Below are positions 10,047 through 63,703 of a stretch of 64,000 nt of DNA, piece by piece. Positions within the stretch are counted from its first letter, which is position 1. Each line of letters starts with the position of its first letter. This stretch comes from Pseudomonadota bacterium (GTDB lineage: Bacteria; Pseudomonadota; Gammaproteobacteria; Steroidobacterales; JBCBZW01), in assembly GCA_039193195.1 (NCBI GenBank), contig JBCCWS010000005.1, forward strand, positions 154,637 through 218,636, in the 5' to 3' direction. A model generated the notes under the pieces. It saw only the letters and a program-made list of their open reading frames with translations, was not told where the DNA came from and did no database searches. The position numbers and the translations under genes are program-made.

Positions 10047-10081
10047 AGCCTGCTAGGGCATGGGTGCGCTCAGCTGGCTAA

Positions 10082-48285: not shown

Positions 48286-49530
48286 TCACTCGCAGGAGGT
48301 GCCCGCAATCGAATCGAGGGCGCGGCAAGCGTTCACGACGGCGCCCGCCGGTACCGTGTCGGCACTCGACCTAAGAGCTTCGTAAACTGCGCCGGGTGAT
48401 GCGTCCGGCTGTCGCTCGCGGATGAGGGCCACCACGCCACTGACGTGTGCGGTGGCGAAGGACACGCCCTGCATGAAGTCGAAGGCATCGCGGGGCACGG
48501 TGGTGAGGACGTCGGCGCCCGGGGCGGAGATCGCGCCGTCCACGGGCGCCGATGTGACCGCGATGACGCCGTCGATCGCGGTGGGGAACTGGGCGCGAGT
48601 GTCCGCCACTTGGGGGCCGACCACGACGATTCCTTTCGCGAGCGCCTCGTCCACGAGGCGGGTCAGCAACGGATCGGCTGGCCCCGCCAGGCTCAAGTTC
48701 ACCACGTCAACGGACTTGTCGATGGCGCGGTCCAGGGCCCGGGCTAAGGTGAAGGAGTCGCAGCGACCCACGCTGCCTGCCGAGCCTGGCGCGTCCCAGC
48801 ATGCGCGGTAGGCGAACAGCGCCACGTCCGGTGCCACGCCGTAGCCGCCTAGGCCGTTGCCTGCGATGGCGCCGATGACCCCTGCCACGGCTGTGCCGTG
48901 GACCTCTGCCGCGTGCTCGCCAGGCACGAAGTTGCGCGACTCGCGGATGCGCTTGCGCAGATCGCGATGGCGCGCGTCTATTCCCGTGTCGATCACGGCG
49001 ACGCGCACGCCCTTGCCCGTGGCCCAGCGATGCGCCTTGTCGATGGCCATGGCTGTATGGGCGGCTTGTAGGGCGGCGTACGGATCGTCGGGCGCCATCG
49101 TGCCGCGCACGTCAAAGGCATTTAGCGGTTGTGCCGACTCCACCTGTCGATCCGCGCGCAGGGCCTGCAGCACTTGTTGGCGCGTGCGCACAGGTTCGGC
49201 CTTCGCCTCCACCAGCGCGCAGTACACGCCTAGGGAGGCCATTTGCCAGCCATCTATGATCTGCAGTGCGTGGCGGCGGGCGATGCCGCGCAAGCGCCTT
49301 TGCACTAGTGCCGAGGGTTCATAGCCGCGGCGCACGGCGTAGGCACCCGTCTCGCCGGGAATCGCCACGCGCTGGTTGTGGTGGGGATCGACGATAGTGA
49401 TCAGCATGCGACCGTCGCCGTCGTTCTGCGGCTGGTGGGGCTCCACAGCCCCGGCGAAGGCGGTCACCTGCCCCAGGAGGAGCAGTAGGCTCGCCATGAG
49501 CGTGCGCGGGAACATCTTAAGGACGTCCAT
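48286..49530 (-). CDS. S8 subtilisin-like serine protease (third S8 in window, no GYLWSD repeats)
   Basis: Signal peptide 'LMASLLLLLGQVTAFAG'. Propeptide-like region. Triad contexts 'VRVAVIDTGIDARHRDL', 'HGTAVAGVIGA', 'MQGVSFATAHVSGVVALI'. The start is ATG 49530 or ATG 49515, the latter 1 nt after the upstream TAA. Confidence 0.85.
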   Translation of the reverse strand: MDVLKMFPRTLMASLLLLLGQVTAFAGAVEPHQPQNDGDGRMLITIVDPHHNQRVAIPGETGAYAVRRGYEPSALVQRRLRGIARRHALQIIDGWQMASLGVYCALVEAKAEPVRTRQQVLQALRADRQVESAQPLNAFDVRGTMAPDDPYAALQAAHTAMAIDKAHRWATGKGVRVAVIDTGIDARHRDLRKRIRESRNFVPGEHAAEVHGTAVAGVIGAIAGNGLGGYGVAPDVALFAYRACWDAPGSAGSVGRCDSFTLARALDRAIDKSVDVVNLSLAGPADPLLTRLVDEALAKGIVVVGPQVADTRAQFPTAIDGVIAVTSAPVDGAISAPGADVLTTVPRDAFDFMQGVSFATAHVSGVVALIRERQPDASPGAVYEALRSSADTVPAGAVVNACRALDSIAGTSCE

Positions 49531-50161
49531 CGTTGCCGTCGCCGCTGCCGCGGGCGTCGGTCACCGGCTCGGCGAATACGACGCGATCGTCAGCACGCAA
49601 GCTCTCTAAGGCTACCTCCACAGCGCGATCATCCGCACCGGCGAGGGAGAGATCAAAAACACCGCCCGAGGTGGGGCCTGCGCTTACCTGGGCGTCTATC
49701 GACTGCAGCAGCGAGCGCAATTCCGCGAGCGAGGTGTCGGGGTTGAACACCACGCGCAGCTGTGTGCTCGGCGCAGGTCCCTGCTGATCCGAATACGTCT
49801 CGTAGCCGATAGTCGGGCCCTGCAGACTCGGGAGCCAGAGGGCGACGACGGCGAGGGAGGCGGCGAGGGCGACGATGGCCGCCGTCTGCGTGCGCACGAT
49901 CCACCAGGGCGCCCCCTCGCCCGGTGAGGGTTGCTCCTCGGTGGGGAGAGTGCTCGTGGTTTCGGCCGGCGCCTGTGTGTCGATGCGCGACATCAGGTTC
50001 TGAAGCCCGTGCTCGGCGCTCATGCCGGCGGCCTCGCTGCGCGCCATCTCCTCATCGCTGCGCTGGTGCAGGGAGCGGGCCAGCAGGTTCCATCCTGCAT
50101 CGTCTGCCAGCTCGGGCGCTAGGCGGGCGCGATTCGTGTCGTCGTCTTGTGGGTTGCTCAT
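49517..50161 (-). CDS. Single-pass membrane protein (candidate anti-sigma factor, no zf-HC2)
   Basis: ORF 49517..50275(-). The ATG at 50161 is 2 nt after the sigma gene's TGA. TM 'TAAIVALAASLAVVALWL'. The periplasmic C-terminal domain 'LRVVFNPDTSLAELRSLLQSIDAQVSAGPTSGGVFDLSL...ESLRADDRVVFAEPV' resembles the C-terminal domain seen in many proteobacterial anti-sigma factors. Confidence 0.6.
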   Translation of the reverse strand: MSNPQDDDTNRARLAPELADDAGWNLLARSLHQRSDEEMARSEAAGMSAEHGLQNLMSRIDTQAPAETTSTLPTEEQPSPGEGAPWWIVRTQTAAIVALAASLAVVALWLPSLQGPTIGYETYSDQQGPAPSTQLRVVFNPDTSLAELRSLLQSIDAQVSAGPTSGGVFDLSLAGADDRAVEVALESLRADDRVVFAEPVTDARGSGDGNDGRP

Positions 50162-50163
50162 CG

Positions 50164-50790
50164 TCAGGCTCCCAGGGCGTCTGCCAGGTCGGTGCCCAGG
50201 CCGGTCGCTTTGAGCGCATCGCGCATCCGCTTCCGAGCGTGGAACATGCGTGTCTTCACCGTGTTCACCGGACAATCCGCCATCTCGGCAATCTCCGGAT
50301 ACGAGTGACCCATGACCAGGGCGAGCTCCACCATGAGTCGCTGGTCGGCGGGTAGGGACTTGAGGGCGACGTTGGCCACTTCCTGCTGGACGAGGGCGTC
50401 GTCAGGGAGGGGGCCATCGTCTTCGGCGCTCTCCAGGTACTGGTCCGGTTCATCGCGCTCGCCGCCGCCTGAGGCGACGAGGCGAAGGCGACTCGTCTCC
50501 CGGCGCAGGTGCTTGAGCGCCCGGCGGTAGGCGATGCCCATGAGCCAGGTGGACACGCGGGAGCGTCCCTCGAAGGTGCCGGCGTCGCGCCAGACCACCA
50601 TGAATACATCATTGACCACTTCCTCCGCGTCTTCGGGCCGGCGGACTACGCGCAGCGCGAAGCGCATCAATTTTCCGTGGTAGGCCAGGTACAGCGCCTG
50701 CAGCGCCGCCTTGTCCTGGCGGGAGATCCTCGACATCAACTGGTTGTCGTCGCCTGCGTCTCGCCGGGTCATCCCTTCGCTACCACTCAC
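50164..50790 (-). CDS. ECF-type RNA polymerase sigma factor
   Basis: Region 2 'ALQALYLAYHGKLMRFALRVVRRPEDAEEVVNDVFMVVW...STWLMGIAYRRALKHLR'. Region 4 'LPADQRLMVELALVMGHSYPEIAEMADCPVNTVKTRMFHARKRMRD'. Confidence 0.85.
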   Translation of the reverse strand: MSGSEGMTRRDAGDDNQLMSRISRQDKAALQALYLAYHGKLMRFALRVVRRPEDAEEVVNDVFMVVWRDAGTFEGRSRVSTWLMGIAYRRALKHLRRETSRLRLVASGGGERDEPDQYLESAEDDGPLPDDALVQQEVANVALKSLPADQRLMVELALVMGHSYPEIAEMADCPVNTVKTRMFHARKRMRDALKATGLGTDLADALGA

Positions 50791-50973
50791 GTTGCTGGTT
50801 TGCTCGTAGGTACCGCCCCACCCCGAAAAGGTTCAAGCGACCGTTCATCGCCGCTCGACGCGGCGTTTGAACCGCCGACGAGTGGGCTGGGACATAACGG
50901 GTAAGCGTGGGCGAGCAGCGCAGTGCGCGCGCCCACAGGTCCATCCGCATTCACTCGAGTGAGCCCTGACATC

Positions 50974-52134
50974 ATGGTTGCCTCCGCCGCCCTCGCCCTG
51001 CAATTGGTCGACGATCAGTACACGCAAACCCAAGTGTTCCCTGCCGGTACCGAGTTGGCCAGCACTTGCGTTCACCTTCCCGCGCGCCCGAGACGCAAGA
51101 CCGCGGCCGTGGGCGATGAGATCAACGGCCGTTTCCTGTTGCAGGCAGAGATCGGTCGCGGCGGCATGGGGAGGGTGTTCAAGGCCCTGGACAAGCGCAA
51201 GCTGGAGGCCCACTCGCGAGCCCCGCATGTGGCGATCAAGGTGATGACCGTGGCGGAGATCGGGGTCGAGGCGGCGACCGTCGCGTTGGAGCGTGAAGTA
51301 CAACGCTCTCAGTCGCTTACGCACCGTCATATCGTGCGAGTCAACGACTTCGATCGCGATGGTGACACGGTGTTCGCCACCATGGAGTTGCTCGAGGGCG
51401 ATTCCCTGCGCAAGCGCATCGACGCCGCCGGCCCAGGTGGGCTGGCCCCCACGCTGGCGCGGCGCCTCGTGCGCCAGGCCGGCGAGGCGCTGGCCTACGC
51501 GCACGCCAACGGCATCCTCCACGCGGACTTCAAGCCCAGCAACGTGTTCGTGACCCGCGACGCAGACGCGAAGGTGATCGACTTCGGCATCGCCCGCGCC
51601 TACCAACCTAACGCCGCAGCCCTGGAACAGACCCGCTTCGATCCTCGGGCGCTGGGTGCGATGACCCCTGCCTACGCCAGCCCGGAGATGCTCGAGCACA
51701 AGGCCCCCGATCCGCGCGACGATGTTTACGCCCTTGGCTGCGTCGCCTACGAGGCGCTCACGGGCACCCATCCCTTCGGTCGAATGCCTGCCAACCAAGC
51801 GCGCGACTTAGGCCATCGCCCGCCTAGGCCAGCAAAGCTGAACCGCCGTGAATGGGCGGCGCTCGAACGCACCCTGCGTTTCGATCGCGCCTCGCGCACG
51901 CCAACCGTCGCCCAGTTTGTCGAGGCCTTCGTGCGCGCGAGTGGGCGCCGCCCGACCCGAACGCGCCGGCGCCGCTTGCCGGTCGTAAGCGTGCTCCTGG
52001 CCATGGCAGGGATGGCGGTGGCGGCGCCCTGGGCCCTGCTCCCCTCGCCCGCTGACGAGGCGATGGCGGGCGCTTCGCCCTCGACCGTAGCGATGTTCGA
52101 AGCGACAGAACTCAGAACACTAGATGTCCGCTAG
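50974..52134 (+). CDS. Hanks-type Ser/Thr protein kinase with C-terminal TM anchor
   Basis: ORF 50923..52134(+); the start is uncertain (GTG 50923 or ATG 50974). 'IGRGGMGRVFKA', 'VAIKVM', 'HRHIVRVNDF', 'ILHADFKPSNVFV', 'KVIDFGIA', 'TPAYASPE'. C-terminal TM 'LPVVSVLLAMAGMAVAAPWALL'. Confidence 0.85.
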   Translation: MVASAALALQLVDDQYTQTQVFPAGTELASTCVHLPARPRRKTAAVGDEINGRFLLQAEIGRGGMGRVFKALDKRKLEAHSRAPHVAIKVMTVAEIGVEAATVALEREVQRSQSLTHRHIVRVNDFDRDGDTVFATMELLEGDSLRKRIDAAGPGGLAPTLARRLVRQAGEALAYAHANGILHADFKPSNVFVTRDADAKVIDFGIARAYQPNAAALEQTRFDPRALGAMTPAYASPEMLEHKAPDPRDDVYALGCVAYEALTGTHPFGRMPANQARDLGHRPPRPAKLNRREWAALERTLRFDRASRTPTVAQFVEAFVRASGRRPTRTRRRRLPVVSVLLAMAGMAVAAPWALLPSPADEAMAGASPSTVAMFEATELRTLDVR

Positions 52135-53967
52135 GCGAGGCGATGCCCTCTGCTCCCCCGCCCAGCGCTCGGCGAACCGCGAGGCGATCTCTCGCGCGCG
52201 CTCCTGATCCCCCGCGGCCTTGAGCGCTTGCGACAAACCGAACAGCAACAGGACCTGGTCTGGGTCTTGCACGAGTGCCTGCTCGAACACGTCGACCGCT
52301 TCGCTGGGGCGCTGTGCTTCCACCAACGCAGCGCCCAGGGATTGGCGCACCGGGTAGTACCACATGGCCGGTTCGAGGTAGGGCAGCTCGTCCTGCAGCG
52401 CGACGGCCGCGCGGTACGCGTCGATCGCGCCCTCCGAGTCGCCTTCCGCGCGCATTAGACGTCCCTCGATCACGTAGGCCGCGAGGTTGAGCAGGGCCTG
52501 GCCCGGGGTGTCGGGCAGCAGCGTCTCCCAATCGTGCACCGCGGCAATCTCGCGCAGGGTGGCGACCTCAGCGCGTGCCTCCTCGCGCCGTCCGAGCGCC
52601 GTGAATGCATGGGCCCGCGCGTAGTGCCACGCGCCGGTGACGTACACCAGGGCTTCATTCGGTGGCGCCAGCGCCAGCACGTCTTCCGGAGCACTGAACT
52701 GCGCATGGGCGAAGTAGGGTGCGGCGTCCATCAGCTGCGCCCACGGCAGGGTGAGGGACATCTCCAGGTCGGTCAGCTTGCCGAGCTTCTCCGCCGCGCT
52801 CAGGGCACTCGCGCTATCGCCACTTAAGCGTGCAGACTCGAGCACAAAGTGCACGTTGTGAGGGTAGTAGGTGTAGCGGTAGGGCGTGTCCTCGTCCTTC
52901 TGCGCGAGGTAGGCCTCATCCGCCACCATGGCAAGGCGATTGACTCGAATCGAGTCCTCAAATCTTCCTAAGCGAATGAATAGGTGAGAGGGCATGTGCA
53001 CGAGATGGCCAGCCCCTGGCGCCGCGGTGACCAGCTTGTCGGCGTGGGGCGCGGCGAGCTCGGGGTGGTTGGAGGCCTCCACGGCGTGAATATAGAGATG
53101 GATTGCCATTGGGTTGTCTGGGTCGAGCGCGAGGGAGCCTTCGAGCGTCGGCACCAGGGCTTGCAAGTTTGGATGCGCGGTCTTGCCGTCGGCCTCCCAG
53201 TAGTCCCAGGGCTGGGTGTTCATCAGGGCGTCGGCGTAAATTGCGAGGACGTCGGCGTCCTCGGGAAAGCGTTTGGCGACCTGTGCCATCGCCTCAGCGA
53301 AGCGCCGGTTGAGCTCGCCTTGGTCCGCTTGCGGTGAATCGTCATAGCGGCGGGTCATGGCGGTGACGAGCGCGCGTTCGACTGGAGTAGCACCCTGCGC
53401 GGCGGCCTGCGCGTGCTCGAGGGCGGCGATCGCCGGGCCGGCGGCCTGCGGCTCCATGGCGGCATTGATGTTGGGGCCTAGGGCGTAGGCCTCACCCCAC
53501 CAGCACAGAGCGCACTGGGGATCGATGCGCCGCGCTTCGCGGAAGGACGCGACCGCCTCGGGGTGATTGAACGCGTACGCAAGGAGAAGGCCCTGATCGA
53601 AGTAGCGCTGGGCGAGGGGGGCGTTCGTCGTGATGTCGCGATGGTAGACGCCCATGCCCTCTAGCAGTGGGGGGCGTGCAGGCGCGAGTGTGTCCACGGC
53701 CCGTTCGGCCTTGGCGAGTAGGAACTGCGCGAGGTCGAGGCGGCGCTGAAACCCTCGATCGTTAGCCCGCCCGGGCATTCCGCAGACGGCCGCTATTAGG
53801 TGGGCGGGGATTTGCTCGCCGGCGTGGTCGATAAGCGGTGCCAACGCGGGGGCGTGGTCCCCATCATCGTGGGCCATGCCTGGGGCGGCGATGAGCGTTA
53901 GGAGAAGTAGCGCCGCGGCCGCGCGGTCGAGCGTCTTTAGAGGGGTAGTGAGCGAGTGGGCGTGCAT
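52120..53967 (-). CDS. Exported TPR-repeat protein
   Basis: Signal peptide 'AAAALLLLTLIAAPGMA'. 615 aa with multiple TPR-like helical pairs ('AVASFREARRIDPQCALCWWGEAYAL', 'AIDAYRAAVALQDEL', 'AVDVFEQALVQDPDQ'). The 3' end overlaps the convergent kinase gene by 15 nt. Confidence 0.7.
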   Translation of the reverse strand: MHAHSLTTPLKTLDRAAAALLLLTLIAAPGMAHDDGDHAPALAPLIDHAGEQIPAHLIAAVCGMPGRANDRGFQRRLDLAQFLLAKAERAVDTLAPARPPLLEGMGVYHRDITTNAPLAQRYFDQGLLLAYAFNHPEAVASFREARRIDPQCALCWWGEAYALGPNINAAMEPQAAGPAIAALEHAQAAAQGATPVERALVTAMTRRYDDSPQADQGELNRRFAEAMAQVAKRFPEDADVLAIYADALMNTQPWDYWEADGKTAHPNLQALVPTLEGSLALDPDNPMAIHLYIHAVEASNHPELAAPHADKLVTAAPGAGHLVHMPSHLFIRLGRFEDSIRVNRLAMVADEAYLAQKDEDTPYRYTYYPHNVHFVLESARLSGDSASALSAAEKLGKLTDLEMSLTLPWAQLMDAAPYFAHAQFSAPEDVLALAPPNEALVYVTGAWHYARAHAFTALGRREEARAEVATLREIAAVHDWETLLPDTPGQALLNLAAYVIEGRLMRAEGDSEGAIDAYRAAVALQDELPYLEPAMWYYPVRQSLGAALVEAQRPSEAVDVFEQALVQDPDQVLLLFGLSQALKAAGDQERAREIASRFAERWAGEQRASPRLADI

Positions 53968-54144
53968 GGGGAACCCTCCCTGGGGGAATCGAAGCGCAAG
54001 GAATGTATGCGATCAATGTCGTAGAAAGTGTGCCGCAGGCGTAGCGCCGGCGCTACGCAGGGGCGAGCGGGAGCGGGGCGGCGTGCGACGTCCGACCTCA
54101 GAACGAGCACTCGGGTCAAACGTGATCTAAGTCGTGTTGGTCCT

Positions 54145-54215
54145 CTGATTAGGAACTTATTTATAGAATATTAGTTCTAGGAATAAATTAGGTAATTCAG
54201 CGAAATATTACTTTC
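54145..54215. promoter_or_regulatory. 70-bp AT-rich island with repeated TTAGGWA words
   Basis: 'ctgattaggaacttatttatagaatattagttctaggaataaattaggtaattcagcgaaatattacttt' contrasts sharply with the GC-rich surroundings. The words are 'ttaggaac' (54149), 'ctaggaat' (54177) and 'ttaggtaa' (54188). There is an imperfect inverted repeat TAGGAACT...AGTTCTA. It lies just after the stop (54233) of the pseudo-caspase gene and ~180-250 nt upstream of the TPR gene start (53967). Confidence 0.4.
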
Positions 54216-54232
54216 TGGCGTGCTCGAGATGG

Positions 54233-56329
54233 CTAGGGGCCATCCATTCGACCCGTCGTCCGGATCTGCCGAGGCGTCGCGAGAAGGCCCGTGGCCGTGG
54301 ATGCGCGCCCGTTGCCCACTAGCGCCCCCGCTCGGAGCGATACCCCGAGACGTGCTGCGTCCGCGTTCATCTGCTCGGCGAGGTCCTGCAGGGTCACCAA
54401 CCCGTCGTGGCGACCGCCCAGTTCGCCCTGGCGGCGCAGGCTGCGGGCAAAGAAGTAGGCGAAGGGGCCTGCACCGATCGAGACGCGCGGTGCGTCGGGT
54501 GGCGTGATGTTGGCGAGGAGATCGCCCTGATCCAGGGGCAAGGCCCGCAGCAGGGGCGGCCCCAGCGGTGGGGCGAGGACCAGAGTGCGATGGCCGTGCC
54601 CCGTGGCCAGCGTGGCGAGGGTAACCGCGTCGGCCGTGTGCGGGGCAGTGGGGTCGAAGCTAGGTAGCAACAGCGATGGCACCTCATCTACGGCGCGTAC
54701 GTAGCCGGTCACGAAGATCACCACCTCCGCGTCGCTGGCGTGGGCGCGTACCCCGGCGATTACCTCGCGCTTCGATGGGTTGATAAGCAGGTCCGTTCGG
54801 TAGCCGCTGTCGCCGAGCACCGTCGCGACGCGCCGGGCATCTTCCACCGAGTGCTGGCGCGCGTTGAGATGCGCGTAGTCGGCTACGCCGATCACCAAGG
54901 CCCATTTGCGCTGGGCCAAGAACGCCTGGCGCTCGGTGCTCGCCTTCCATGACTGGGGCCCCTCGCCGCTGCTGCTGGGGACAGCATCGGCGAGCACGCG
55001 CAGGTTGCGGCTCGCTTCCGGCGCGTAGGCGCGCAGCGAGGCCAAGGTGTCGGCTTGGGCCATCAGAGTGGGCGTGTCCACGGTGCTGGCGGTGCGCAAG
55101 CGCTCGGCCAGCTGGGCCACTGCAGCCATGTTCGCGAGGCCCGCCGCTTGGCTTCGCGGTGCATCGCTGCGCTCAGCGCGCGCTTGCACTGCCGCGTAGT
55201 CCGTTCGCTCCAGTGCATGCAACGCTGAAAGTTCTTCGAAGACGATCTTGGTGTCAGCGCTCAAGGAGGCGGCCGGTGCGCGCGGCGCCAGCCCTGCGCC
55301 CGCCGCGACCAGTTCGCTGGCGAAGGCCACCGCATCGAGAAGCGCGCTGCATTCGCCCCGGCATGGCGCGCGCACGGAGGTCCACCCGCCGGCACCACCG
55401 CGCACCTGCAGGCGCACCCAGTCGCCAGCAGCCTCGGCGATGTAGTGGGGTGCCTTGTCCGTGAGCTTGCCGACGCCTCGGGCGTCCAGCTGCGGGTCGG
55501 CGCGAAGGGTACGGGTCTGCGCTGCGATGGCCGGCAAGCGCTCGACGAAGGCTTGCGGCAGGATCACATCCAGGAGTTTGAAGCGATCGTGCGTGAGCTC
55601 CGCGGTGAGCCACTGGCTGCCCTGGGCCGTGGGCATCGCAACGCGGTGGGCGAAGCGCGTGCGCTCGCCCATCTTGGGGAAGGCCTGGGCGAAGAGACTG
55701 AGCCGCACGCCGTCGCGCGCGCGGACCAGACGGCCCCACAGGGCGATCGAATAGTCTTGATCCCGCGTGAGGCGCTCCACCTTGTCGAAGTAGCCGAGGT
55801 CACCCGCTCGCGCCGGGGTCACCCCTTGCTGGAAGTTGACCACGGCGAAGGATGGCGCGCGGGCGGAGAACAACAGCTGCTTGGCGATCAGGAAGCTGAG
55901 GTCATCGCCCAAGCCCAACCCGTCTGGATCGTCCAGGGTGAACACCGCCACGCGGTTGTCTGCCTTGGGAAAGTAACGGGTCACCTCATCGCGCAGCTGC
56001 TCCACGTCTGAGGAGAGCGCGTCGAGCGCCTCCCCCACGTTGACGATCCTGCGCGCGCGCCGCCGCGCGGAGCCGCTCTCCGCTCGATCGAGATCGCGGC
56101 GCACGGACTCCCAGCGCCGTCGCAGGTCGCGTAGATCCTCTTCGCTGTGGGCGGCTTCGATGTCCTTCAGGAGCGACTCCAACGTCTGCAGACGTTTGAT
56201 CTCATCGTCCATCGGTACATCGACTGCGGCGTCGCTAGGTGCGACGCTCATCATCAAAGCCGCCACCAACGCTAGCGCAAGGTGGATGCGGTGAGGCTTG
56301 GACAGCGGTAGGCGGTGTAGCGCGCTCAT
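54233..56329 (-). CDS. Exported multidomain protein: coiled coil, LpoB/TolB_N-like module, SH3-like, C-terminal caspase (C14)-like domain lacking the His/Cys dyad
   Basis: ORF 54233..56869(-). The start is set at the ATG at 56329, which forms ATGA with the upstream gene's stop. Signal peptide 'HRIHLALALVAALMMSVAPSDA'. 'NRVAVFTLDDPDGLGLGDDLSFLIAKQLL...ALWGRLVRARDGVRLSLFAQAF'. 'GDWVRLQVRGGAGGWTSVR'. The caspase-like block is 'KWALVIGVADYAHLNARQHSVEDARRVATVLGDSGYRTDLLINPSKREV...AEVVIFVTGYV...RTLVLAPPLG', where the consensus would be ...sGHG... and ...DaC... Confidence 0.75.
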   Translation of the reverse strand: MSALHRLPLSKPHRIHLALALVAALMMSVAPSDAAVDVPMDDEIKRLQTLESLLKDIEAAHSEEDLRDLRRRWESVRRDLDRAESGSARRRARRIVNVGEALDALSSDVEQLRDEVTRYFPKADNRVAVFTLDDPDGLGLGDDLSFLIAKQLLFSARAPSFAVVNFQQGVTPARAGDLGYFDKVERLTRDQDYSIALWGRLVRARDGVRLSLFAQAFPKMGERTRFAHRVAMPTAQGSQWLTAELTHDRFKLLDVILPQAFVERLPAIAAQTRTLRADPQLDARGVGKLTDKAPHYIAEAAGDWVRLQVRGGAGGWTSVRAPCRGECSALLDAVAFASELVAAGAGLAPRAPAASLSADTKIVFEELSALHALERTDYAAVQARAERSDAPRSQAAGLANMAAVAQLAERLRTASTVDTPTLMAQADTLASLRAYAPEASRNLRVLADAVPSSSGEGPQSWKASTERQAFLAQRKWALVIGVADYAHLNARQHSVEDARRVATVLGDSGYRTDLLINPSKREVIAGVRAHASDAEVVIFVTGYVRAVDEVPSLLLPSFDPTAPHTADAVTLATLATGHGHRTLVLAPPLGPPLLRALPLDQGDLLANITPPDAPRVSIGAGPFAYFFARSLRRQGELGGRHDGLVTLQDLAEQMNADAARLGVSLRAGALVGNGRASTATGLLATPRQIRTTGRMDGP

Positions 56330-57261
56330 GGGTTCATCCCGCAGTTGCCTTCCATCAGGGCGGTGAGGGCGGAGACGTCTTCTCCGAGCGCTTCGGCGGC
56401 AGCGATCACCGTGAGCGCACCCGGGCAGTCGCGCCGGCTGGCGATGCCGGCCGCCACGGCCATTAGGACCGCGCCGTAGGTCTGCGGATTCAACTGCGCC
56501 GCGCTCGGGTTGGCCAGGTCTACGGCCGGGTTCTGTGTGGTCACCGGTACCGATACGATATCGTAGGCGTCGCTCACGTGAGAGCGGACCAGAAACTCGC
56601 CCGTGCTTCGGCTCACATCGCCGTGCACCACCGCGTGGGCGCGCAGGGCGCGTGCTAGGGTGCCAGCCTGGGTGATCACACGCGGTTTGGCGTCGCGGCA
56701 GGGGGCGAACACGGGCTGTAAGGCTGGCGGCAAGTGCAGCTGTTGCATCACCGTGAGTAGATCGAACTGCAGCGCTTCGGCCAGGCGGTCCGGGAGATCC
56801 GGAATGTCCTCGCCAAGTGGCGAACGGAAATGCCCGACCACCACCAGGTTGTCCTTCTTCAGCAGGCATTCGGCGAGGGCTGCGGGGAATAGATGCAGGC
56901 GGGTGATGGGGTCCTCGGGGACGCCGTCGACGATCGCCACCTCGAGGGTTTTCGCTGCGAAACGAGGGTGTTCCGCGCTCACCTGCACGATGTGTAGGCG
57001 TTGCTCGCCCGGCAAGTCGATCGTCGCGCTGAAGTGGCCTTGCTCATCGCTGGCCACCTGCCAACGCTCGTCTTCGAAGCGCACGGTAAGCGTGGCGCCC
57101 ACCACCGGTTGGCCGGTCGCGGCGTTGGTGAGGTCGCCGGCGAGCAGGGCGTCGATCGCATAGGCGTTCACGCAAGCGCCCAGGAGCACGCCTGCAGCGA
57201 GCGCAATGGTAAGCTCGCGGCGTCGCCTAGAGCGTGGTGATGCGTAGTCTTGCCAGTCCAT
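56326..57261 (-). CDS. Putative lipoprotein: CarboxypepD_reg-like beta-sandwich + LpoB/TolB_N-like module
   Basis: ORF 56326..57327(-). ATG at 57261 ('MDWQDYASPRSRRRRELTIALAAGVLLGAC|VNA', lipobox-like). 'GQPVVGATLTVRFEDERWQVASDEQGHFSATIDLPGEQ'. 'NLVVVGHFRSPLGEDIPDLPDRLAEALQFDLL...ALRAHAVVHGDVSRSTGEFLVRSHVSD'. It overlaps the upstream TIR gene by 35 nt, so the start is not certain. Confidence 0.65.
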   Translation of the reverse strand: MDWQDYASPRSRRRRELTIALAAGVLLGACVNAYAIDALLAGDLTNAATGQPVVGATLTVRFEDERWQVASDEQGHFSATIDLPGEQRLHIVQVSAEHPRFAAKTLEVAIVDGVPEDPITRLHLFPAALAECLLKKDNLVVVGHFRSPLGEDIPDLPDRLAEALQFDLLTVMQQLHLPPALQPVFAPCRDAKPRVITQAGTLARALRAHAVVHGDVSRSTGEFLVRSHVSDAYDIVSVPVTTQNPAVDLANPSAAQLNPQTYGAVLMAVAAGIASRRDCPGALTVIAAAEALGEDVSALTALMEGNCGMNP

Positions 57262-58087
57262 CGTTGGAGACTTCCTCGCCGCTCTCGCAGCCGTTGCGTA
57301 CCGGAAACTGAGACTGTGTGCCGTCATCCCACCGCACGCTCACGCGCCACTTGCTCAAGGCCTGTCGCTCAAGGCTGGTGGTGGTCACTCGGGCCTGCGT
57401 TTGCGGATCGCGCTGGAGAGGCAGGGCGCGGGATCGATCCGCTTCGTCGGTAAGCTCCAAGGCGCGCGGCGTCACGCGCGTGCCGGTGCTGTCTACGGTG
57501 AACCGGATGATGCACTCTCCGCTCTCGCCCCCACCGTCGATCCAGCTCCAGGCGAGTGCGGTCGCCAGGGCCAGGGTACTGATGCTAGCGATTACAAAGG
57601 TTAGGCTCTGGTTGCGTCTAGGCGGATCGATGACCAGTGGAGGATCGGTGTGTCCGGTTGCGTTGGGTGGCGTTCCGATGTGCGGCTGCAGATCGCGCTG
57701 CAGCAGGGCGAACTCCGGCGTGTCGACTTTCCCCGCCCAGCGCGAAAAATCGAGCGTGTGTAGCCCCTCGAAGCGGAACGGCAACGGGCAGTCGTCGAGC
57801 CGCACGGGCACGAGCTTCCTTTCCTTTAGGCCAAAGGATGCCTCGTCGCGTATGTAGCGCGACTCGACGGCCGCTCGCGACCAAAGCACCACGACGCAGC
57901 CGCTGCGCGTCAGCGCGTCGCCGATCACATCGTCGAAGTGCTCGCCGCCGCGCAGATCCGGATCCCACCATACATCCCAGCCCACCTGCTCGAGGGCCTG
58001 AGCCATGGCGCTGGCCTCGCGGCGTTCCTCGCGCTTGTAGCTCAGGAAGATGTCGGGGCCAGCGGTCTCGTCCGTTGGGGTGCGCAC
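57227..58087 (-). CDS. Membrane-anchored TIR-domain protein (N-in TIR, one TM, ~100-aa extracytoplasmic tail)
   Basis: 'PDIFLSYKREERREASAMAQALEQVGWDVWWDPDLRGGEHFDDVIGDALTRSGCVVVLWSRAAVESRYIRDEASFG' is a TIR_2-type pattern: (D)IF(L/I)SY, ...vvvl.S...v.S.W...E. TM 'LTFVIASISTLALATALAWSWI'. The C-terminal tail has two Cys ('GESGECIIRF...VRNGCESGEE'). Confidence 0.85.
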   Translation of the reverse strand: MRTPTDETAGPDIFLSYKREERREASAMAQALEQVGWDVWWDPDLRGGEHFDDVIGDALTRSGCVVVLWSRAAVESRYIRDEASFGLKERKLVPVRLDDCPLPFRFEGLHTLDFSRWAGKVDTPEFALLQRDLQPHIGTPPNATGHTDPPLVIDPPRRNQSLTFVIASISTLALATALAWSWIDGGGESGECIIRFTVDSTGTRVTPRALELTDEADRSRALPLQRDPQTQARVTTTSLERQALSKWRVSVRWDDGTQSQFPVRNGCESGEEVSNDGLARLRITTL

Positions 58088-58423
58088 CGGGTGATCCTTC
58101 GGGTCCTTAGAGCAACAGCGCTAGGGGCTGACATGATCCCTCACAGGGCAGCTGTACAACGCACGATCCCGTGTGCTGAGCGCGATAAAATCCGATGTTA
58201 CGTTGCCCGACGGGCCTGACAAGCTGCGCGGGTGTTGGCGAGCACACACCCCCGTGGGTACCTCCCAGCCTCTTCGAGGGTTCACCGGGTTTCGAGAAGC
58301 CAGAGAGCCGCCCGCTTGGAACGACTCCAGGGGGTAGCGATCCAATCCGTGTCGGGCTAGTGTCCGCAGCGGTCACCCGCCGCGCCACGCTGCGCTAGCC
58401 GCCAAGGTGCAAGATCGAACATC

Positions 58424-58840
58424 GTGCAGTTGCAGCACTCCCCCATCATCCGCTCGCTCGCGGCGGCCGCCGTCGCGTTCACCTTCTACGCCCTGTGGGC
58501 GTGGTGGGCGAATCGCCTGCATTCCCCCAGCGCACAGCAGACCGCTGCCCTCACGCAGGGGGCGTACAGCGCCTCGGTCACCCTAGCGCTCACCTCGGTG
58601 GTTGAGTTGCTCTACCGAGGGCGTCAGCCACGGCGCCTGCGATTCGCGCGCTGCGTAATCGGCAGCGTGGCGCTGCTGGTGGTCTCCTCCGTGGCCATCC
58701 ATCTCCTCGCGGGCACAGCCGAGCTGTGGTTGACCGTGTTGCCGAGCTGGATCTTCGGCTCCGCTTACGCGGTGGCCTACGCCCTGGCCCTGACCCGCAG
58801 CGACCGCGAGTGCGAGCCGTCGTTGGGTGAGCTGTCATGA
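58424..58840 (+). CDS. Hypothetical 4-TM inner-membrane protein, coupled to the OlsF-like gene
   Basis: GTG start. Hydrophobic segments 'LAAAAVAFTFYALWAWWA', 'ASVTLALTSVVELLY', 'VIGSVALLVVSSVAIHLL', 'LTVLPSWIFGSAYAVAYALAL'. The stop overlaps the downstream ATG (ATGA at 58837-58840). Confidence 0.55.
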   Translation: MQLQHSPIIRSLAAAAVAFTFYALWAWWANRLHSPSAQQTAALTQGAYSASVTLALTSVVELLYRGRQPRRLRFARCVIGSVALLVVSSVAIHLLAGTAELWLTVLPSWIFGSAYAVAYALALTRSDRECEPSLGELS

Positions 58841-60549
58841 GCGCGAACGCGCCTGCTTCCCAACGCGTCTCCCTCCGCGCAGTGGCCAACTCCTCAACGC
58901 AACTCGGTCGGCGTCTGAGCACCTTCGCGCCGTTGCTCGATCGGGTGCTGGGCATCCAGGCCATCGATCGCTTCTGCCAGCAGCATCGTCTGTACGGCTT
59001 GGCGCCTGCCACCTTTGCCGATCGGGCGCTCGAGGCCCTTGCGGTGAGGGTGGATGACGGCGGTGCCCTCTCGAGGCTGCTGCCCCGCGAGGGGCCGGTG
59101 ATCGTCGCTTCCAACCATCCGCACGGCGGGATCGAGGGGCTTGTGCTGGTTCACCTCCTGGCCGCCCTGCGGCCGGATGTGAAGATCCTCGCGAACACCG
59201 CACTGCGCGTGTTCTCAGAGCTCGCGCCCCTGTCGATCTACGTCAACCCGCTGGCGCCGGGCGATCCCGCTAATCGCAAGGGCCTGCGCGCGTGCCTCGG
59301 TCACCTGAGCGACGGCGGCGCGCTCGTGATGTTCCCGGCCGGCCGCACCTCCTTTCACCAGCCCGATCTCGGCTACATCGCGGACAGCCCGTGGAGCACG
59401 GCCTTGGGGCGCCTGGCGAGGCGTACCGATGCACAGGTGCTCCCCATCCGCTTCATGGGCAAGAACAGCCGGTTGTTCTACGGCCTTGGCAGCCTCTGGT
59501 ACCGCTTCCGCCTGCTGATGCTGGCGCGCGAGGTGATGAATAAAGTGGGGCAGACAATCGCACTGCGCGTAGGCCAGCCGATCGCGGCGCGCGATGTCGA
59601 TCGGCTGGATGGCTCCACGCTGACCCAATACCTGCAGGTGGAGAGCGCCGCACTGGCCGCCCCAGTAGCTCTTGGCATCGCGGCGGTGCGCGAGAGAGCG
59701 TTAGCCCCTGCGCGATCTCCCGCCGTGCTCGAGCGAGAAGTGGCCGCGTTACCCACCGATCAGCGCCTGCTCGATGCCCACGACTGCATCGTCGCCTATG
59801 GGCGTGCCGCGCAGCTGCCTGAGGTGGTGGCGCAGATCACTCGCGAGCGGGAGCGCACCTATCGCGTCGAGGAAGAGGGCAGCGGTGAGCCGGTCGATAC
59901 GGATCACTTCGATGAGCGCGTCACTCATTTGTTTTGTTGGAATACGCAGGCTCAGGCCCTAGTTGGCGCTTATCGTATCGCCTGTCGCGACACCCTTGCG
60001 GCCGAAGGAGGTACGTACCTATCGGGAGTGTTCGCTTTTGAAGAGTCGTTTGTTGCGGCGAGACAGCCGGCGATCGAACTGGGTCGCTCCTTCGTGGTGC
60101 CCGAGTACCAGCGCAGTCGCTACGCCTTGGACCTGCTCTGGCGCGGCATCGGTGCTTTCCTGAGGGCGCATCCTCGCTATTCGCTGATGTACGGCACGGT
60201 CTCCCTGACCCGGCGCTACGACCCCGTATCCATCGCCATGATGTGCGATGTACTCATCGATGCGCCGCAGGGCGTGAGCGCCCGCGTGCCCTTGCCCGAT
60301 GTGTTGCCGGCGGAGTGGCATCAATACCGGCGCCAGCATCCGGTGGATCTCGCGACCCTCAACGCGCTGATTGCTGCCCGCGAACCGGACGGCAAGGGCG
60401 TGCCGGTGCTCCTGCGCCACTACGTCGGCCTCAACGCTCGCTTTCATGCCGTGGCCGTGGATCAGACCTTCGCCGCGACGCCGGGTCTGCTGCTCAGCGT
60501 TTCGCCGGCGGATCTGCCGGCGACCAAGCGGCGCCGCTACCTGGGTTAG
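58837..60549 (+). CDS. Bifunctional acyltransferase, OlsF-like (PlsC/LPLAT-type N-terminal domain + OlsB/GNAT-type N-acyltransferase C-terminal domain)
   Basis: N-terminal 'VIVASNHPHGGIEGLVLVHLL...ALVMFPAGRTS' (lysophospholipid acyltransferase-like). C-terminal 'RERERTYRVEEEGSGEPVDTDHFDERVTHLFCWN...LVGAYRI...IELGRSFVVPEYQRSRYALDLLWRGIGAFL...YSLMYGTVSL' (OlsB/PF13444-like). 570 aa. Confidence 0.8.
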   Translation: MSANAPASQRVSLRAVANSSTQLGRRLSTFAPLLDRVLGIQAIDRFCQQHRLYGLAPATFADRALEALAVRVDDGGALSRLLPREGPVIVASNHPHGGIEGLVLVHLLAALRPDVKILANTALRVFSELAPLSIYVNPLAPGDPANRKGLRACLGHLSDGGALVMFPAGRTSFHQPDLGYIADSPWSTALGRLARRTDAQVLPIRFMGKNSRLFYGLGSLWYRFRLLMLAREVMNKVGQTIALRVGQPIAARDVDRLDGSTLTQYLQVESAALAAPVALGIAAVRERALAPARSPAVLEREVAALPTDQRLLDAHDCIVAYGRAAQLPEVVAQITRERERTYRVEEEGSGEPVDTDHFDERVTHLFCWNTQAQALVGAYRIACRDTLAAEGGTYLSGVFAFEESFVAARQPAIELGRSFVVPEYQRSRYALDLLWRGIGAFLRAHPRYSLMYGTVSLTRRYDPVSIAMMCDVLIDAPQGVSARVPLPDVLPAEWHQYRRQHPVDLATLNALIAAREPDGKGVPVLLRHYVGLNARFHAVAVDQTFAATPGLLLSVSPADLPATKRRRYLG

Positions 60550-63500
60550 GCACCGCGGTCGACCCTCGCCGTTGGCGGCCGGCAACGCCGTACACGAGCC
60601 CCAGTACCGCGGGCAGGAAGAACAGGGTGACCACGGCCGAGGACAGCAGGCCGAAGAGCACTACGGCGCCCACGCCGCGGTACAGCTCCGTGCCCGCGCC
60701 GGGAATGAACACGAGCGGCGAGATGCCGATCACCGTGGTGATCGTCGACATGAGCACGGCGCGCAGGCGCGAGTGCGTGGCGTCGAGGATGGCCTGACGG
60801 GGCACGAGTCCTGCCTGCACCCCGCTCATGGTCTTCTCCACGATGAGAATGGGGTTGTTCACCACCGTGCCCATGAGGATCAGGAAGCCGAGCATGGTGA
60901 TCATGTCGAAGGGCTGCGTGAAGCCCTCGAGTCCCACTAGCGGCAACGCCGCGCCGAATTGATTCAGTAGCCACAGGCCGACGATGCCGCCAGAGATCCC
61001 GATCGGCACTACCAGCATGATGACCAGCGGGAAGCCCCAATGGCGCAGGATCGCCACCAGCAGTAGGTAGGCGATTATGGCGGAGATGGCGAAGTTGCTG
61101 GCAAGGGCGCGCTGGGTTGCCGCGAGGCGATCGCTGGCGCCGGACAGGCGCATGTCCACGTTGCTGGCGATGAGTCCCTCGGCGCGCAGGGACGGGATCA
61201 GCTTCTCCTCCACGCGCGCGACGGCGCCTTCCAGGGGTACGTCTCGGGGCGGCACGATGGAAACGGTGACCGTGCGGAAGCCGTCCACGCGGCGGATCAC
61301 GTCCGTGCTGCGGGTCTCGCGCACCTCAGCGATCGCGTTGAGCGGCACCACCGCGCCGACGGGGGCGAACACAAGGATATCGGCGAGGTCCTGCGGTTGG
61401 CGAACGGTGCCCTGGGTGCCGTAGAGGTACATGTCGATCTTGTCGTCTTCGAGGAAGAACTCGTCGACGAACGCGCCGTCCGTGAGCGCCCACACGGCGT
61501 AGCCAAGCTCCGGCGCGGTGAAGCCGAGTTCGGCGGCTCGAGTCCAGTCCGGATGCACCTCGAGTACCGGTTGGCCCAGGGTCAGCCCTGAGGGCTCCGC
61601 GCGGACTTGGGGTTGGCGAAACGCCGCCTTGGCCCCGTTGAACAGGGCCAGGGCGGCGTCGTAGAGACCGGCGAGATCCGGGCCAGTGATGTCCACGTTG
61701 ATGCTCCGCGTGCCGCCCTCGTTGCCGGCGAAGATAGAGCCGCGGCTGACGAACCCGTTCATCCCCGGCACCTGCTCGAAGCGCGCCGTGAGCTTTTCGA
61801 TCAGGGCGCCCATGTCCTGGCGGCGAGTGGTCTCGATCACGAAGGTGACGCCGGTCTGGCGGGCGAACTGGAACATGTAGTCGATCGCTGGGTAGTCCAT
61901 CTCGCCGCGATCGAACTCACTGGGATCGCGGCCGAGGTGGGGTTTGAGCTCCTCGCCGATCTCATCCATCACCAAGCGGATCTCTTCAAGGTTGGTACCC
62001 GGCGGTGGGAACAGGCGGGCGAAGGCCTTCTTCTCCTCTCCCTCGGGCAGATATTCGGCCTGGGGCGTGAGGAAAGCGAGTACAGCACCTGTGGTGGCGA
62101 GCAGAGCGATCATGAGCGTTAGCTGTCGAATGGGGCGATCGGCGACCCAGCGCGCGTTGGCCAGGACCAGGGCGGTGAGGCCTCTCGCCTCGCCCGAATC
62201 GTCTGGGGGCTGCCTCGGACGGAAGCTCAGGGCCTTAGCGGCTGAGGGCACTACTGCGATCGCCACCAGCATCGACATGAGAATGGAGCTGGAGATAGCC
62301 ACGGCGATGTCCGAGTAGAGTTGCCCCGCCTCCTCGCGGATGAACAGGACCGGTAAGAACACGAAGACGGTGGTGAGCGTGGAGGCGAGGACGGCGCGCC
62401 ACACCTCGCTGACCCCCTCTAGAACGGCTTGCATGCGGCGCTGCCCACGCGCCAGATGGCGGGCGATGTTCTCCAGCACGACGATTGAATTGTCGAGGGT
62501 CATACCGATGGCGAAGGCGACTCCCGCTAGGGAGATTACGTTGACCGTGCGCGCGCTTAGGAGCAGGCCGATAAACGCCGCAAGGGTGCAGACGGGGATG
62601 CCGATGGCGCCCACCACCGTGGCGCCGATCGAGCGTAGGAAGGCGAATAGTACGAGCGTTGCGAGCACGCCGCCGAGGGCGAGGTTGCTGCGCACGTTGA
62701 CGACCGCATCTTCCACGTAGCGCGCATCCTCGGTGACGATATGCGCCTGTAGGCCGATGCTGCCGAGGTAGCCCTCGTTGAGGCGCTCGAGCTGATCGCG
62801 CACGGCGTTGCGCACGCCCACCACGTTGGCGCCGGGGATGCGGCGCACGGCCATGCTGAGTACCGGGCGCGTATCGACGCGGTTGACGTAGCGCAGCTCC
62901 GACTGATCCAGGGAGACGCTTGCCACGTCGCGCAGGTAGACGGGGGCGCCGTTGCGCTGGGCGACGATCATGTCCTCGATGTCGTTCAGAGACTCGAAGC
63001 GACCTATAGTGCGAATAAGGTAGCGGGCCTTGCCGGCGTCGAGATCGCCGCCGGAAGTGTCGCGGTTGCGGTTGCGAATCGCCGTGCGCAGGGCTGCGAG
63101 GCTGATGCCTCGCTCGGCGAGGCGCGCCGGATCGATGCGGATGTGGATTTGGCGTTCAGCGCCACCGCGCAGCTCCGCTTCGGCTACCCCTGCCACCCGC
63201 TCCAGGCGCGGGCGCACGTTGTCATCGAGATAGTCCCGCATGGAGTAGAGATCGAGGCCGAAGGGGTTGCTCGCCAGGGTGGTGATACCGACGAAGATGA
63301 AGGGGCTATTGGAGTAGGCGTCGGCAACGATACGCGGCTCGTCCACGTTCTCCGGGTAGGAGGGTACCTGAGAGAGGCTGTTGTTGACTTGGATCAAGGC
63401 CTCGTTGAGATCCGTGCCGCGGGCGAGCTCGAGTTCGATCTCGGCGCGGCCCATGGAGGCGCGGGAGGTCATGCGCTCGATGCCCGTGATGCCGCGCAGG

Positions 63501-63703
63501 TAGTCTTCCTGTTCGATGAGGATCTCGCGCTCTACGTCCTGCGGCGTGGCGCCGGGCCAGCCGGTGACGATAGAGATGACGCGCACGTCGAGGTCGGGGA
63601 TCAGCTGGATTGGCACGCGCACTAGGGCGAGCACGCCGAACAGGCAGGCGAGGAGCGTGCCGACGGCGACCAGAATGGGATTGCGCAGGAGAAACTGGAA
63701 CAC
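60494..63703 (-). CDS. RND efflux transporter permease (AcrB/HAE1-like)
   Basis: 1069 aa. 'MFQFLLRNPILVAVGTLLACLFGVLAL', 12-TM/two-loop architecture. 'VGAIGIPVCTLAAFIGLLL', 'AFAIGMTLDNSIVVLENI', 'LGFLILMGTVVNNPILIVE'. The 3' tail overlaps the convergent OlsF-like gene by 56 nt. Confidence 0.9.
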   Translation of the reverse strand: MFQFLLRNPILVAVGTLLACLFGVLALVRVPIQLIPDLDVRVISIVTGWPGATPQDVEREILIEQEDYLRGITGIERMTSRASMGRAEIELELARGTDLNEALIQVNNSLSQVPSYPENVDEPRIVADAYSNSPFIFVGITTLASNPFGLDLYSMRDYLDDNVRPRLERVAGVAEAELRGGAERQIHIRIDPARLAERGISLAALRTAIRNRNRDTSGGDLDAGKARYLIRTIGRFESLNDIEDMIVAQRNGAPVYLRDVASVSLDQSELRYVNRVDTRPVLSMAVRRIPGANVVGVRNAVRDQLERLNEGYLGSIGLQAHIVTEDARYVEDAVVNVRSNLALGGVLATLVLFAFLRSIGATVVGAIGIPVCTLAAFIGLLLSARTVNVISLAGVAFAIGMTLDNSIVVLENIARHLARGQRRMQAVLEGVSEVWRAVLASTLTTVFVFLPVLFIREEAGQLYSDIAVAISSSILMSMLVAIAVVPSAAKALSFRPRQPPDDSGEARGLTALVLANARWVADRPIRQLTLMIALLATTGAVLAFLTPQAEYLPEGEEKKAFARLFPPPGTNLEEIRLVMDEIGEELKPHLGRDPSEFDRGEMDYPAIDYMFQFARQTGVTFVIETTRRQDMGALIEKLTARFEQVPGMNGFVSRGSIFAGNEGGTRSINVDITGPDLAGLYDAALALFNGAKAAFRQPQVRAEPSGLTLGQPVLEVHPDWTRAAELGFTAPELGYAVWALTDGAFVDEFFLEDDKIDMYLYGTQGTVRQPQDLADILVFAPVGAVVPLNAIAEVRETRSTDVIRRVDGFRTVTVSIVPPRDVPLEGAVARVEEKLIPSLRAEGLIASNVDMRLSGASDRLAATQRALASNFAISAIIAYLLLVAILRHWGFPLVIMLVVPIGISGGIVGLWLLNQFGAALPLVGLEGFTQPFDMITMLGFLILMGTVVNNPILIVEKTMSGVQAGLVPRQAILDATHSRLRAVLMSTITTVIGISPLVFIPGAGTELYRGVGAVVLFGLLSSAVVTLFFLPAVLGLVYGVAGRQRRGSTAVPNPGSGAAWSPADPPAKR

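Follow-up and report, generated by a model that had tools for sequence, protein, structure and literature searches.

The window analyzed here is a 64,000-nucleotide stretch of contig JBCCWS010000005.1 (metagenome-assembled genome GCA_039193195.1, positions 154,637 to 218,636) from a Pseudomonadota bacterium of the Steroidobacterales, and our subject is an operon of three genes, designated G1, G2 and G3, that occupies positions 54233-58087 on its minus strand. G1 encodes a membrane protein with a TIR domain, and G2 and G3 encode exported proteins, the second of which ends in a caspase fold. We regard it as probable, if only somewhat, that this locus is a three-part, envelope-spanning, outside-in conflict system of the abortive-infection type, in which a periplasmic G2-G3 complex would control a cytosolic TIR NADase (NAD+ glycohydrolase). 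The pair formed by the G2 module and the N-terminal half of G3 (G3N) recurs in other bacteria with different cell-killing domains, and the system would therefore seem to be an immune-type receptor, not described so far, for events at the cell envelope. The three genes, in order of transcription, are:

57227-58087, minus strand: G1, a 286-amino acid (aa) protein with a TIR domain, a transmembrane (TM) helix and a tail; GTG start, with an AAGGA motif upstream
56326-57261, minus strand: G2, an exported protein of 311 aa; ATG start
54233-56329, minus strand: G3, an exported protein of 698 aa

An initial annotation of this DNA had described three overlapping genes on one strand, and their coordinates and overlaps are borne out: the ATG of G2 lies 35 nt within the 3' end of G1, and G2 and G3 are joined by an ATGA stop/start overlap at 56326-56329.

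A conserved protein pair with varying effectors

Word-indexed searches found few relatives (seven full-length and four short homologues of G3, and seven homologues of G2), and a search for related loci with the narrow alignment A2 yielded two genome loci and eight metagenome loci only. The census given here is based on an exhaustive HMMER search with a G2 profile, plus 12 contig look-ups. At least 76 clusters (50% identity) match the whole G2 module by HMMER, 54 of them as stand-alone exported proteins and 22 with N-terminal extensions. The most frequent extension is a TIR domain followed by a TM helix, found in 13 cluster representatives in addition to loci L005, L009, L011 and L015-19. A CHAT domain with an intact HG...C dyad takes the place of the TIR in three others (P0204, P0210 and P0255), and an EAD1-like domain does so in two (P0141, from locus L003, and P0260), where the Pfam EAD1 match has an E-value of about 1e-3, below the cut-off. 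In three further proteins a signal peptide precedes either a trypsin domain (two cases) or an alpha/beta-hydrolase domain (one case), to which the G2 module is joined (P0225, P0266 and P0154), and one extension was not assigned to a type. At L003 an EAD1-Trypsin_2 gene lies directly upstream of the gene for the EAD1-like-TM-G2 protein, and the N-termini of the two products are alike (BLASTP E 2e-4); no EAD domain was found at the window locus.

For 25 loci the surrounding sequence was fetched and annotated with local hidden Markov models (HMMs). In all 15 of the loci that are long enough, a G3N gene comes immediately after the gene with the G2 module, with E-values from 1e-57 to 1e-133. The split arrangement of the window (TIR-TM-tail, G2, G3), which the initial annotation had singled out as a unit, is found as a set of neighbors in L001 (75% identity, syntenic), in L008 (58%), in L002 (41%, in a different neighborhood) and, at lower identity, in L010 (Candidatus Thiosymbion) and L025. 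Across these relatives the effector is attached to the G2/G3N pair in three ways, i.e., by fusion through a TM helix, by fusion on the periplasmic side, or as a separate membrane protein that bears a tail. As far as sequence comparison can tell, the conserved core is the G2 module together with G3N, and the effector is what varies.

These data bear directly on the possibility that the operon is a chance juxtaposition, or a decaying remnant, of three genes that are unrelated or degenerating. With its catalytically dead caspase domain, and with an indel scar and an AT-rich island at the 3' end, the operon has traits that might be expected of a remnant. The triad nevertheless persists intact and in frame in different neighborhoods, at 41-75% identity and, in Ca. 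Thiosymbion and L025, at lower identity; its start/stop overlaps are conserved, and fusions join its parts. We give the remnant explanation almost no credence, the census, the fusions and the linkage having effectively refuted it.

In the mechanism that we favor, G2 and the N-terminal half of G3 would be exported and would form a periplasmic complex, the constant core of the wider family. G1 would span the inner membrane and present its TIR domain on the cytoplasmic side, and its tail, apparently of a disulfide type, would dock onto the G2-G3 complex from the periplasm; in relatives, the covalent TM-G2 fusion would replace this docking. An event at the level of the envelope, for which phage adsorption or genome injection, peptidoglycan damage and attack by competitors are candidates, would alter this complex in its state or clustering and gather the G1 TIR domains on the cytoplasmic face of the membrane. 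The TIR NADases SARM1, AbTIR, TIR-SAVED and TIR-APAZ are activated by clustering or oligomerization, and the clustered TIR domains of G1 would likewise become an active NAD+ glycohydrolase that arrests or kills the cell. In the clade of the window, the caspase-fold domain of G3 would serve as an accessory surface for binding or oligomerization.

A broader proposal, which we put forward tentatively and consider somewhat short of probable, is that the G2 module, G3N and the tail define an unrecognized, modular family of outside-in immune receptors of diderm bacteria, in which a soluble two-protein sensor in the periplasm is combined with interchangeable death effectors. The sensor would respond to signs of attack at the envelope, e.g., the entry of a phage, damage to the cell wall or the toxin of a competitor. 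The effectors would then comprise the TIR NADase, a CHAT protease, a trypsin recruited through EAD1, and membrane-disrupting helices, and the signal would cross the inner membrane either by covalent fusion or by way of a small docking domain.

The three proteins of the operon

The features predicted for G1 are:

57683-58051, minus strand: TIR domain, predicted cytosolic (residues 13-135), from Pfam TIR_2 and the family profile
57842-57844, minus strand: putative catalytic Glu82 (in 'YIRDEA'), from its position in the motif
57539-57607, minus strand: single TM helix (residues ~161-183), the only place where hydropathy windows exceed 1.5
57230-57535, minus strand: tail domain of ~100 aa (residues ~185-286), predicted to be periplasmic, with a C...W...GC pattern and two Cys

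The topology that had been assigned to G1 at the outset (a TIR domain with a conserved Glu, one TM helix and a Cys-containing tail) agrees with the profile matches and with the single hydrophobic helix. The protein matches Pfam TIR_2 (PF13676) over residues 13-119 with E=2.6e-22 and 80 bits, against a cut-off of 28. The catalytic Glu was placed by the [WYF]-x3-E motif that follows strand C and by what is known of SARM1, whose E642 (in 'WVHKE') we take to be its counterpart. Glu82 is invariant among 29 homologues, and the [YF]-x3-E pattern is kept in all 14 of the TIR-fused relatives (11 by regular expression, and P0148, P0179 and P0219 by eye). Proteins P0019-P0023 are homologous to G1 over its full length. 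Since phmmer with the single G1 sequence found no match in the PDB, a family profile was needed for the comparison with solved structures, and this profile matches AbTIR, PdTIR, SARM1 and RUN1. Among PADLOC models the nearest to G1 are the effector TIRs, TIR-APAZ and TIR-SAVED, and the closest TIR sequences are those of TIR-TM-FGE-sulfatase proteins, with 50-58% identity over the TIR domain. The conserved Glu and the PADLOC matches suggest a TIR domain of the NAD-cleaving type.

The TM helix of G1 is preceded by 'PPRRNQ', with two adjacent Arg, and followed by the acidic segment 'DGGGESGE', and the protein is therefore predicted to have its N-terminus inside and its C-terminus outside. An HMM of the tail matches L001, L002 and L008, and the aligned tails of L010, L025 and L024 keep both Cys, the Trp and one Gly. 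At L024 (801-1517) the same tail is carried by a three-TM protein that has no TIR domain and is encoded upstream of G2 and G3N, which suggests that the tail can serve different proteins as a docking domain and that there are effectors of a membrane-only kind. We propose that the tail of G1 docks onto the G2-G3 complex. It is apparently unrelated to the transthyretin-like domain of G2, the comparison of the two by hhalign having returned a probability of 0.8%.

The TIR domain might instead act in the manner of Thoeris, with the membrane-bound G1 making a messenger of the cyclic ADP-ribose (cADPR) type, without depletion of NAD+, for an effector encoded elsewhere or nearby, e.g., the multi-TM patatin of L005-L007. 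Many bacterial TIRs are producers of signals (10.64898/2025.12.03.692087; 10.1101/2024.10.24.620036); a gene for an 870-aa TM-patatin does lie directly downstream in L005-7, and G1 has a weak match (33 bits against a cut-off of 220) to the NCBIfam model of the Thoeris type III TIR, the only NCBIfam Thoeris model that it matches. What makes such a scheme rather unlikely in our judgment is that none of the proteins encoded in the window, L001, L002, L008 or L010 has a domain for the binding of signals (SLOG, Macro, SAVED and similar), and that CHAT, trypsin and hydrolase domains, all of them terminal effectors and not makers of signals, can stand in for the TIR domain.

The features of G2 are:

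57157-57261, minus strand: signal peptide
56887-57156, minus strand: transthyretin/CarboxypepD_reg-like sandwich, from Pfam and Foldseek
56329-56886, minus strand: alpha/beta and helical module of ~185 residues, without a Pfam model

The AlphaFold2 (AF2) model of G2 has a pLDDT of 83. The CarboxypepD_reg-like sandwich that had been recognized in its N-terminal domain is well founded: the match of G2 itself (E=3.9e-6) is below Pfam's cut-off, the model is matched by 59 of the 77 family members (best 4.7e-11), Foldseek identifies the domain as transthyretin-like (5aq0, target TM-score 0.68-0.71), and the G2 profile matches N-terminal domains of SusC as well as transthyretin-like proteins. For the alpha/beta module the initial annotation had suggested an LpoB/TolB_N-like fold, present in G3 also. 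The first part of this suggestion retains a few weak matches (LpoB 4q6z by Foldseek, E 9.5e-4, TM-score 0.42; Pfam TolB_N, E 0.049 in two of the 77 members; TolB in the PDB, E 1.3; FlgO, E 0.08), and the second part is not supported, the alignment of the alpha/beta modules of G2 and G3 by hhalign being non-significant (E=0.25). No conserved catalytic motif was found in G2 or G3N, whose invariant residues are Cys, Gly and hydrophobic. They include C132, C188 and C307 of G2, invariant across 77 sequences, and C323 and C327 of G3, invariant in its family; the invariant Cys pairs of the exported parts fit the oxidizing environment of the periplasm.

G2 had also been taken for a lipoprotein, and this we reject. 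The lipobox-like 'LLGAC' with Cys30 is present in the G2 of the window only, the homologues in alignment A2 having no Cys at that position, and the 54 stand-alone homologues mostly have signal peptides of the AxA type, among which a lipobox-like motif turns up now and then. In all likelihood, therefore, G2 is soluble in the periplasm. Residues 1-17 of G2 (57210-57261) contain a run of Arg ('SPRSRRRRELT') that is loosely reminiscent of a twin-arginine signal and is not conserved in homologues.

The features of G3 are:

56225-56329, minus strand: signal peptide
55976-56212, minus strand: coiled coil of three long helices (residues 40-118), from the AF2 model
55511-55966, minus strand: alpha/beta module (residues 122-273), from the AF2 model
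55370-55510, minus strand: SH3-like segment (residues 274-320), a small beta-barrel-like cluster of strands in the AF2 model
54917-55348, minus strand: helical region (residues 328-471), from the AF2 model
54281-54910, minus strand: caspase-fold domain (residues 474-683), from Pfam C14 and Foldseek
54701-54703, minus strand: Tyr543, at the position of the catalytic His in the alignment
54566-54568, minus strand: Pro588, at the position of the catalytic Cys in the alignment

This succession of signal peptide, coiled coil, SH3-like segment and caspase-like domain is the one that had been read from the sequence, and the AF2 model (pLDDT 77) and the profile searches uphold it. SH3_3 and SH3_4 are matched in 10 of 12 members of the G3 family (best 6.6e-6 and 2.4e-5, all below the Pfam cut-offs), with E 0.075 for the G3 of the window; a search of the PDB with the G3N profile found nothing outside the caspase part. 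The SH3-like matches, together with the weak TolB_N/LpoB-like signals, may hint at contact with the cell wall, which we treat as a lead only. For the caspase-fold domain the evidence consists of a match to Peptidase_C14 (E=4.8e-7, 30.1 bits against a cut-off of 21.4, profile positions 1-63 only), Foldseek matches to MALT1 and to caspases 1/4/7 (E 3e-7, target TM-score up to 0.65), and matches of the family profile to caspase-1/-4.

The domain has lost its catalytic dyad, as had been noticed at the start. Where caspases have G-H-G, the G3 of the window has G542-Y543-V544, and where they have D-A-C it has A586-P587-P588; among the eight full-length members of the G3 family the His is kept in five and the Cys position is occupied by R, Q, A or P, with no Cys anywhere in the caspase-fold domain of any of the eight. 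With neither the His-Cys dyad nor any Cys, the domain is a pseudo-enzyme and not a cysteine protease, i.e., a pseudo-caspase across the whole family. It is restricted to the clade of the window (the window, L001, L002, L008 and four short contigs; eight proteins) and is best read as a clade-specific accessory surface for binding, assembly or oligomerization; its ancestor may have been a protease active in the periplasm, comparable to the trypsin and hydrolase variants. Near its end, proteins P0003-P0007 have an EF-hand-like DxDxDG...E loop (Pfam EF-hand_5, E 5.7e-4 in three members, with matches to calmodulin loops in the PDB), which is degenerate in the copy of the window (54281-54400, 'ELGGRHDGLVTLQDL'); in the homologues the loop may be a Ca2+ site.

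Signaling could conceivably run in the opposite direction, with a cytosolic TIR, CHAT or EAD domain that senses or regulates and a G2-G3 complex in the periplasm as the executor that perturbs, e.g., peptidoglycan or the outer membrane. The trypsin and alpha/beta-hydrolase domains on the periplasmic side of G2 could be cited in favor of such an arrangement, as could the possible descent of the caspase fold from an active protease, given the retention of its His in five of eight proteins. We consider it quite improbable, however: no catalytic motif is conserved in G2 or G3N, TIR and CHAT domains are established effectors elsewhere, and the window encodes no active periplasmic enzyme in this system.

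The initial annotation had proposed that the exported partners control the cytosolic TIR. As a statement about architecture this is strengthened by the TM fusions, by the linkage of G2 with G3N and by the defense-type islands described below; the pseudo-caspase, which it had included in the controlling scaffold, is ruled out as a core component by its absence from most relatives of G3.

Genomic setting and flanking genes

Features of the flanks and neighboring genes of the window, from right to left, are:

60494-63703: RND-pump open reading frame, convergent with the gene that follows in this list
58424-60549, plus strand: gene for a 138-aa small membrane protein, overlapping the start of that for a 570-aa protein with Acyltransf_2 and Acetyltransf_5 domains
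58088-58423, unstranded: upstream intergenic region of 336 nt, with a divergent gene on the side away from G1
58222 to 58195, minus strand: sigma-70-like site within this region, identified by match to the consensus only
54144-54213, unstranded: AT-rich island of 70 nt just 3' of the operon, with 24% GC
52120-53967: 615-aa exported tetratricopeptide repeat (TPR) protein
50923-52134: membrane Ser/Thr kinase
50164-50790: extracytoplasmic function (ECF) sigma factor
49517-50275: putative anti-sigma gene, overlapping the preceding

The upstream intergenic region and the AT-rich island had both been noted as boundaries of the operon and are confirmed at the lengths given; the window as a whole has 65% GC, and its 64 kb contain just one other 70-nt stretch like the island. 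A scan for terminators at the end of the operon produced nothing convincing. The 227 nt that follow G3 (54043-54269, the island included) are without counterpart in the syntenic relative L001, where their place is taken by 1.9 kb (9998-11931) that encode a 187-aa protein, a 168-aa ECF-type sigma factor and a DUF805 protein; the 3' edge of the operon is, on this comparison, an apparent indel hotspot or scar. On the other side, the 570-aa protein looks like a bifunctional ornithine-lipid synthase (OlsF-like); its gene and that of the small membrane protein are kept together beside the triad in L001 and L008, and its 3' end overlaps that of the RND-pump open reading frame by 56 nt. The sigma factor, anti-sigma, kinase and TPR genes are syntenic in L001. 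The database proteins P0012 and P0019 have the same sequences as G2 and G1, respectively (100% identity).

A setting like that of a defense island, about which the initial annotation had asked, is seen in some relatives (L002, L003, L005 and L011) and is not obvious in the window, L001 or L008. In L002 the system is accompanied by pYEATS-TIR, TIR-LD_cluster2 and CHAT genes; in L003 by a CAP12-PCTIR TIR, a pYEATS-TIR, a patatin, a bacterial gasdermin and a trypsin; in L005 by three ThsB-like TIR genes, a TIR-NB-ARC-WD40 gene and a TM-patatin; and in L011 by two further TIR genes. Just downstream of the system in L002 (10128-11500) and L003 (10615-12040) lies a gene for a protein of 223-227 aa without Pfam match, followed by one for a pYEATS-TIR, and the two may constitute an associated two-gene module. 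In L005 (8170-10782), and also in L006 and L007, the G3N gene is directly followed by that for the 870-aa multi-TM patatin-like protein (GGGIR...GVSGG), a possible extra effector of the TIR-TM-G2 subtype.

Several points weigh against a periplasmic complex that controls a cytosolic TIR NADase. The HMMER alignments of G1 to solved TIR NADases end just before Glu82, and the NADase activity is deduced from this one conserved residue; the fold assignments of G2 and G3N are weak; the periplasmic trypsin and hydrolase fusions show that the effector need not be cytosolic, which makes the direction of signaling less certain; and the operons of the window, L001 and L008 are in a stable chromosomal context (OlsF-like acyltransferase, small membrane protein, RND pump, TPR protein, Ser/Thr kinase and ECF sigma/anti-sigma pair in common) with no obvious defense island.

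This last point also speaks for a non-immune role, in which the system would serve envelope homeostasis or developmental signaling (e.g., the monitoring of the cell wall in social or symbiotic bacteria), with TIR, CHAT and EAD outputs used for programmed death or kin discrimination. The syntenic location beside regulatory and lipid-modifying genes and the SH3-like and TolB_N/LpoB-like hints toward the cell wall are compatible with such a role, and effector sets of this kind are tied to a multicellular habit by Kaur et al. (PMC7159879). We nevertheless think it unlikely. Members of the family occur sporadically and are few, in Pseudomonadota, Acidobacteriota and metagenomes from soil or wetland, and the patchy distribution, the swapping of effectors and the co-location with gasdermin, patatin and TIR genes are hallmarks of conflict systems; moreover, no housekeeping partner is conserved across the loci.

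Comparison with known systems

The initial view that the operon is not a named system agrees with comparison to PADLOC-DB v2, in which G2 has no match at E<=1 and G1 and G3 have only generic TIR and caspase matches from unrelated systems. The G2-G3N pair was not found by keyword searches or in the passages returned by term searches of PMC8195603, PMC10907252, a 2025 survey of Thoeris and a 2026 review. The C-terminal module of G2, G3N and the tail of G1 are without a Pfam model, and neither they nor the pair were found in the passages returned by term searches of PMC7159879 or in its section 33. TIR- or caspase-type conflict systems are already known; what is new here, on the evidence of these comparisons, is the putative periplasmic two-protein module with its docking domain.

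To our knowledge, it is in the cytoplasm that the bacterial TIR systems described so far detect infection. Were our interpretation correct, bacteria would also couple extracytoplasmic surveillance to cell death of the TIR type by way of a conserved periplasmic pair, three new domain families (the C-terminal module of G2, G3N and the tail) would gain a role, and the switching of a TIR NADase through a single TM helix would become tractable to test. The exported, Cys-free caspase fold is a rare bacterial pseudo-caspase and may show how an enzyme that has lost its activity can be retained as a surface for binding or assembly.

In type IV Thoeris, a cytosolic TIR that makes N7-cADPR is paired with an active caspase-like protease, ThsE (Rousset et al., 10.1101/2024.10.24.620036). 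The operon of the window resembles it in combining a TIR protein and a caspase-fold protein, and differs in that its caspase fold is exported, Cys-free and dispensable in most relatives, its TIR is tethered to the membrane, and its constant partner is another exported protein, G2. Membership in type IV Thoeris is ruled out by the dead dyad and the signal peptide of G3, G1 being moreover membrane-anchored; G3 matches the PADLOC 'caspase' model at E=0.0026 only. [quoted passage not shown] Unlike these, G1 has a tail of ~100 aa that apparently recruits two exported proteins, and there is neither an FGS domain nor a DGR.

A similar choice of effectors (TIR, caspase/CHAT, trypsin and alpha/beta-hydrolase) marks the membrane-associated conflict systems that Kaur et al. 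(2020, PMC7159879) describe as EAD-coupled or as EACC1 'System 4', with which the present family also shares EAD1-like adaptors (in the L003 and P0260 variants) and the combination of a constant component with swappable effectors; in contrast to those systems, the present family has no NTPase, vWA-MoxR or EACC1 component. Sensing at the envelope is a feature of Zorya (ZorAB) and Kiwa (KwaA), in which a complex of the inner membrane, part of it periplasmic, would sense phage entry and activate a cytosolic effector (PMC11946911, PMC13434031). The analogy is functional only, with no relationship of sequence or fold: the machinery and effectors of these known envelope sensors are unrelated to those described here, a stator-like motor or KwaA tetramer with nuclease or DNA-binding effectors standing against a soluble periplasmic pair with TIR, CHAT or protease effectors.

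With TIR-SAVED, TIR-APAZ/SPARTA, SARM1 and AbTIR, which are among its best PADLOC or PDB-profile matches, G1 has in common the conserved Glu and the proposed mode of activation; those proteins, unlike G1, are soluble and respond to nucleotides, guide-target duplexes or nicotinamide mononucleotide (NMN), where G1 would be triggered by way of a transmembrane link. Lastly, the predicted topology, in which one TM helix connects a recognition part outside the cytoplasm with a TIR domain inside it, is that of the Toll-like receptors, with the differences that there is no leucine-rich repeat ectodomain, recognition apparently being delegated to separate exported proteins, and that the TIR domains of Toll-like receptors are C-terminal scaffolds, whereas the TIR of G1 is N-terminal and keeps the Glu of the NADases. 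If our reading is right, the system would represent a bacterial counterpart of Toll-like-receptor logic, built around an enzymatic TIR.

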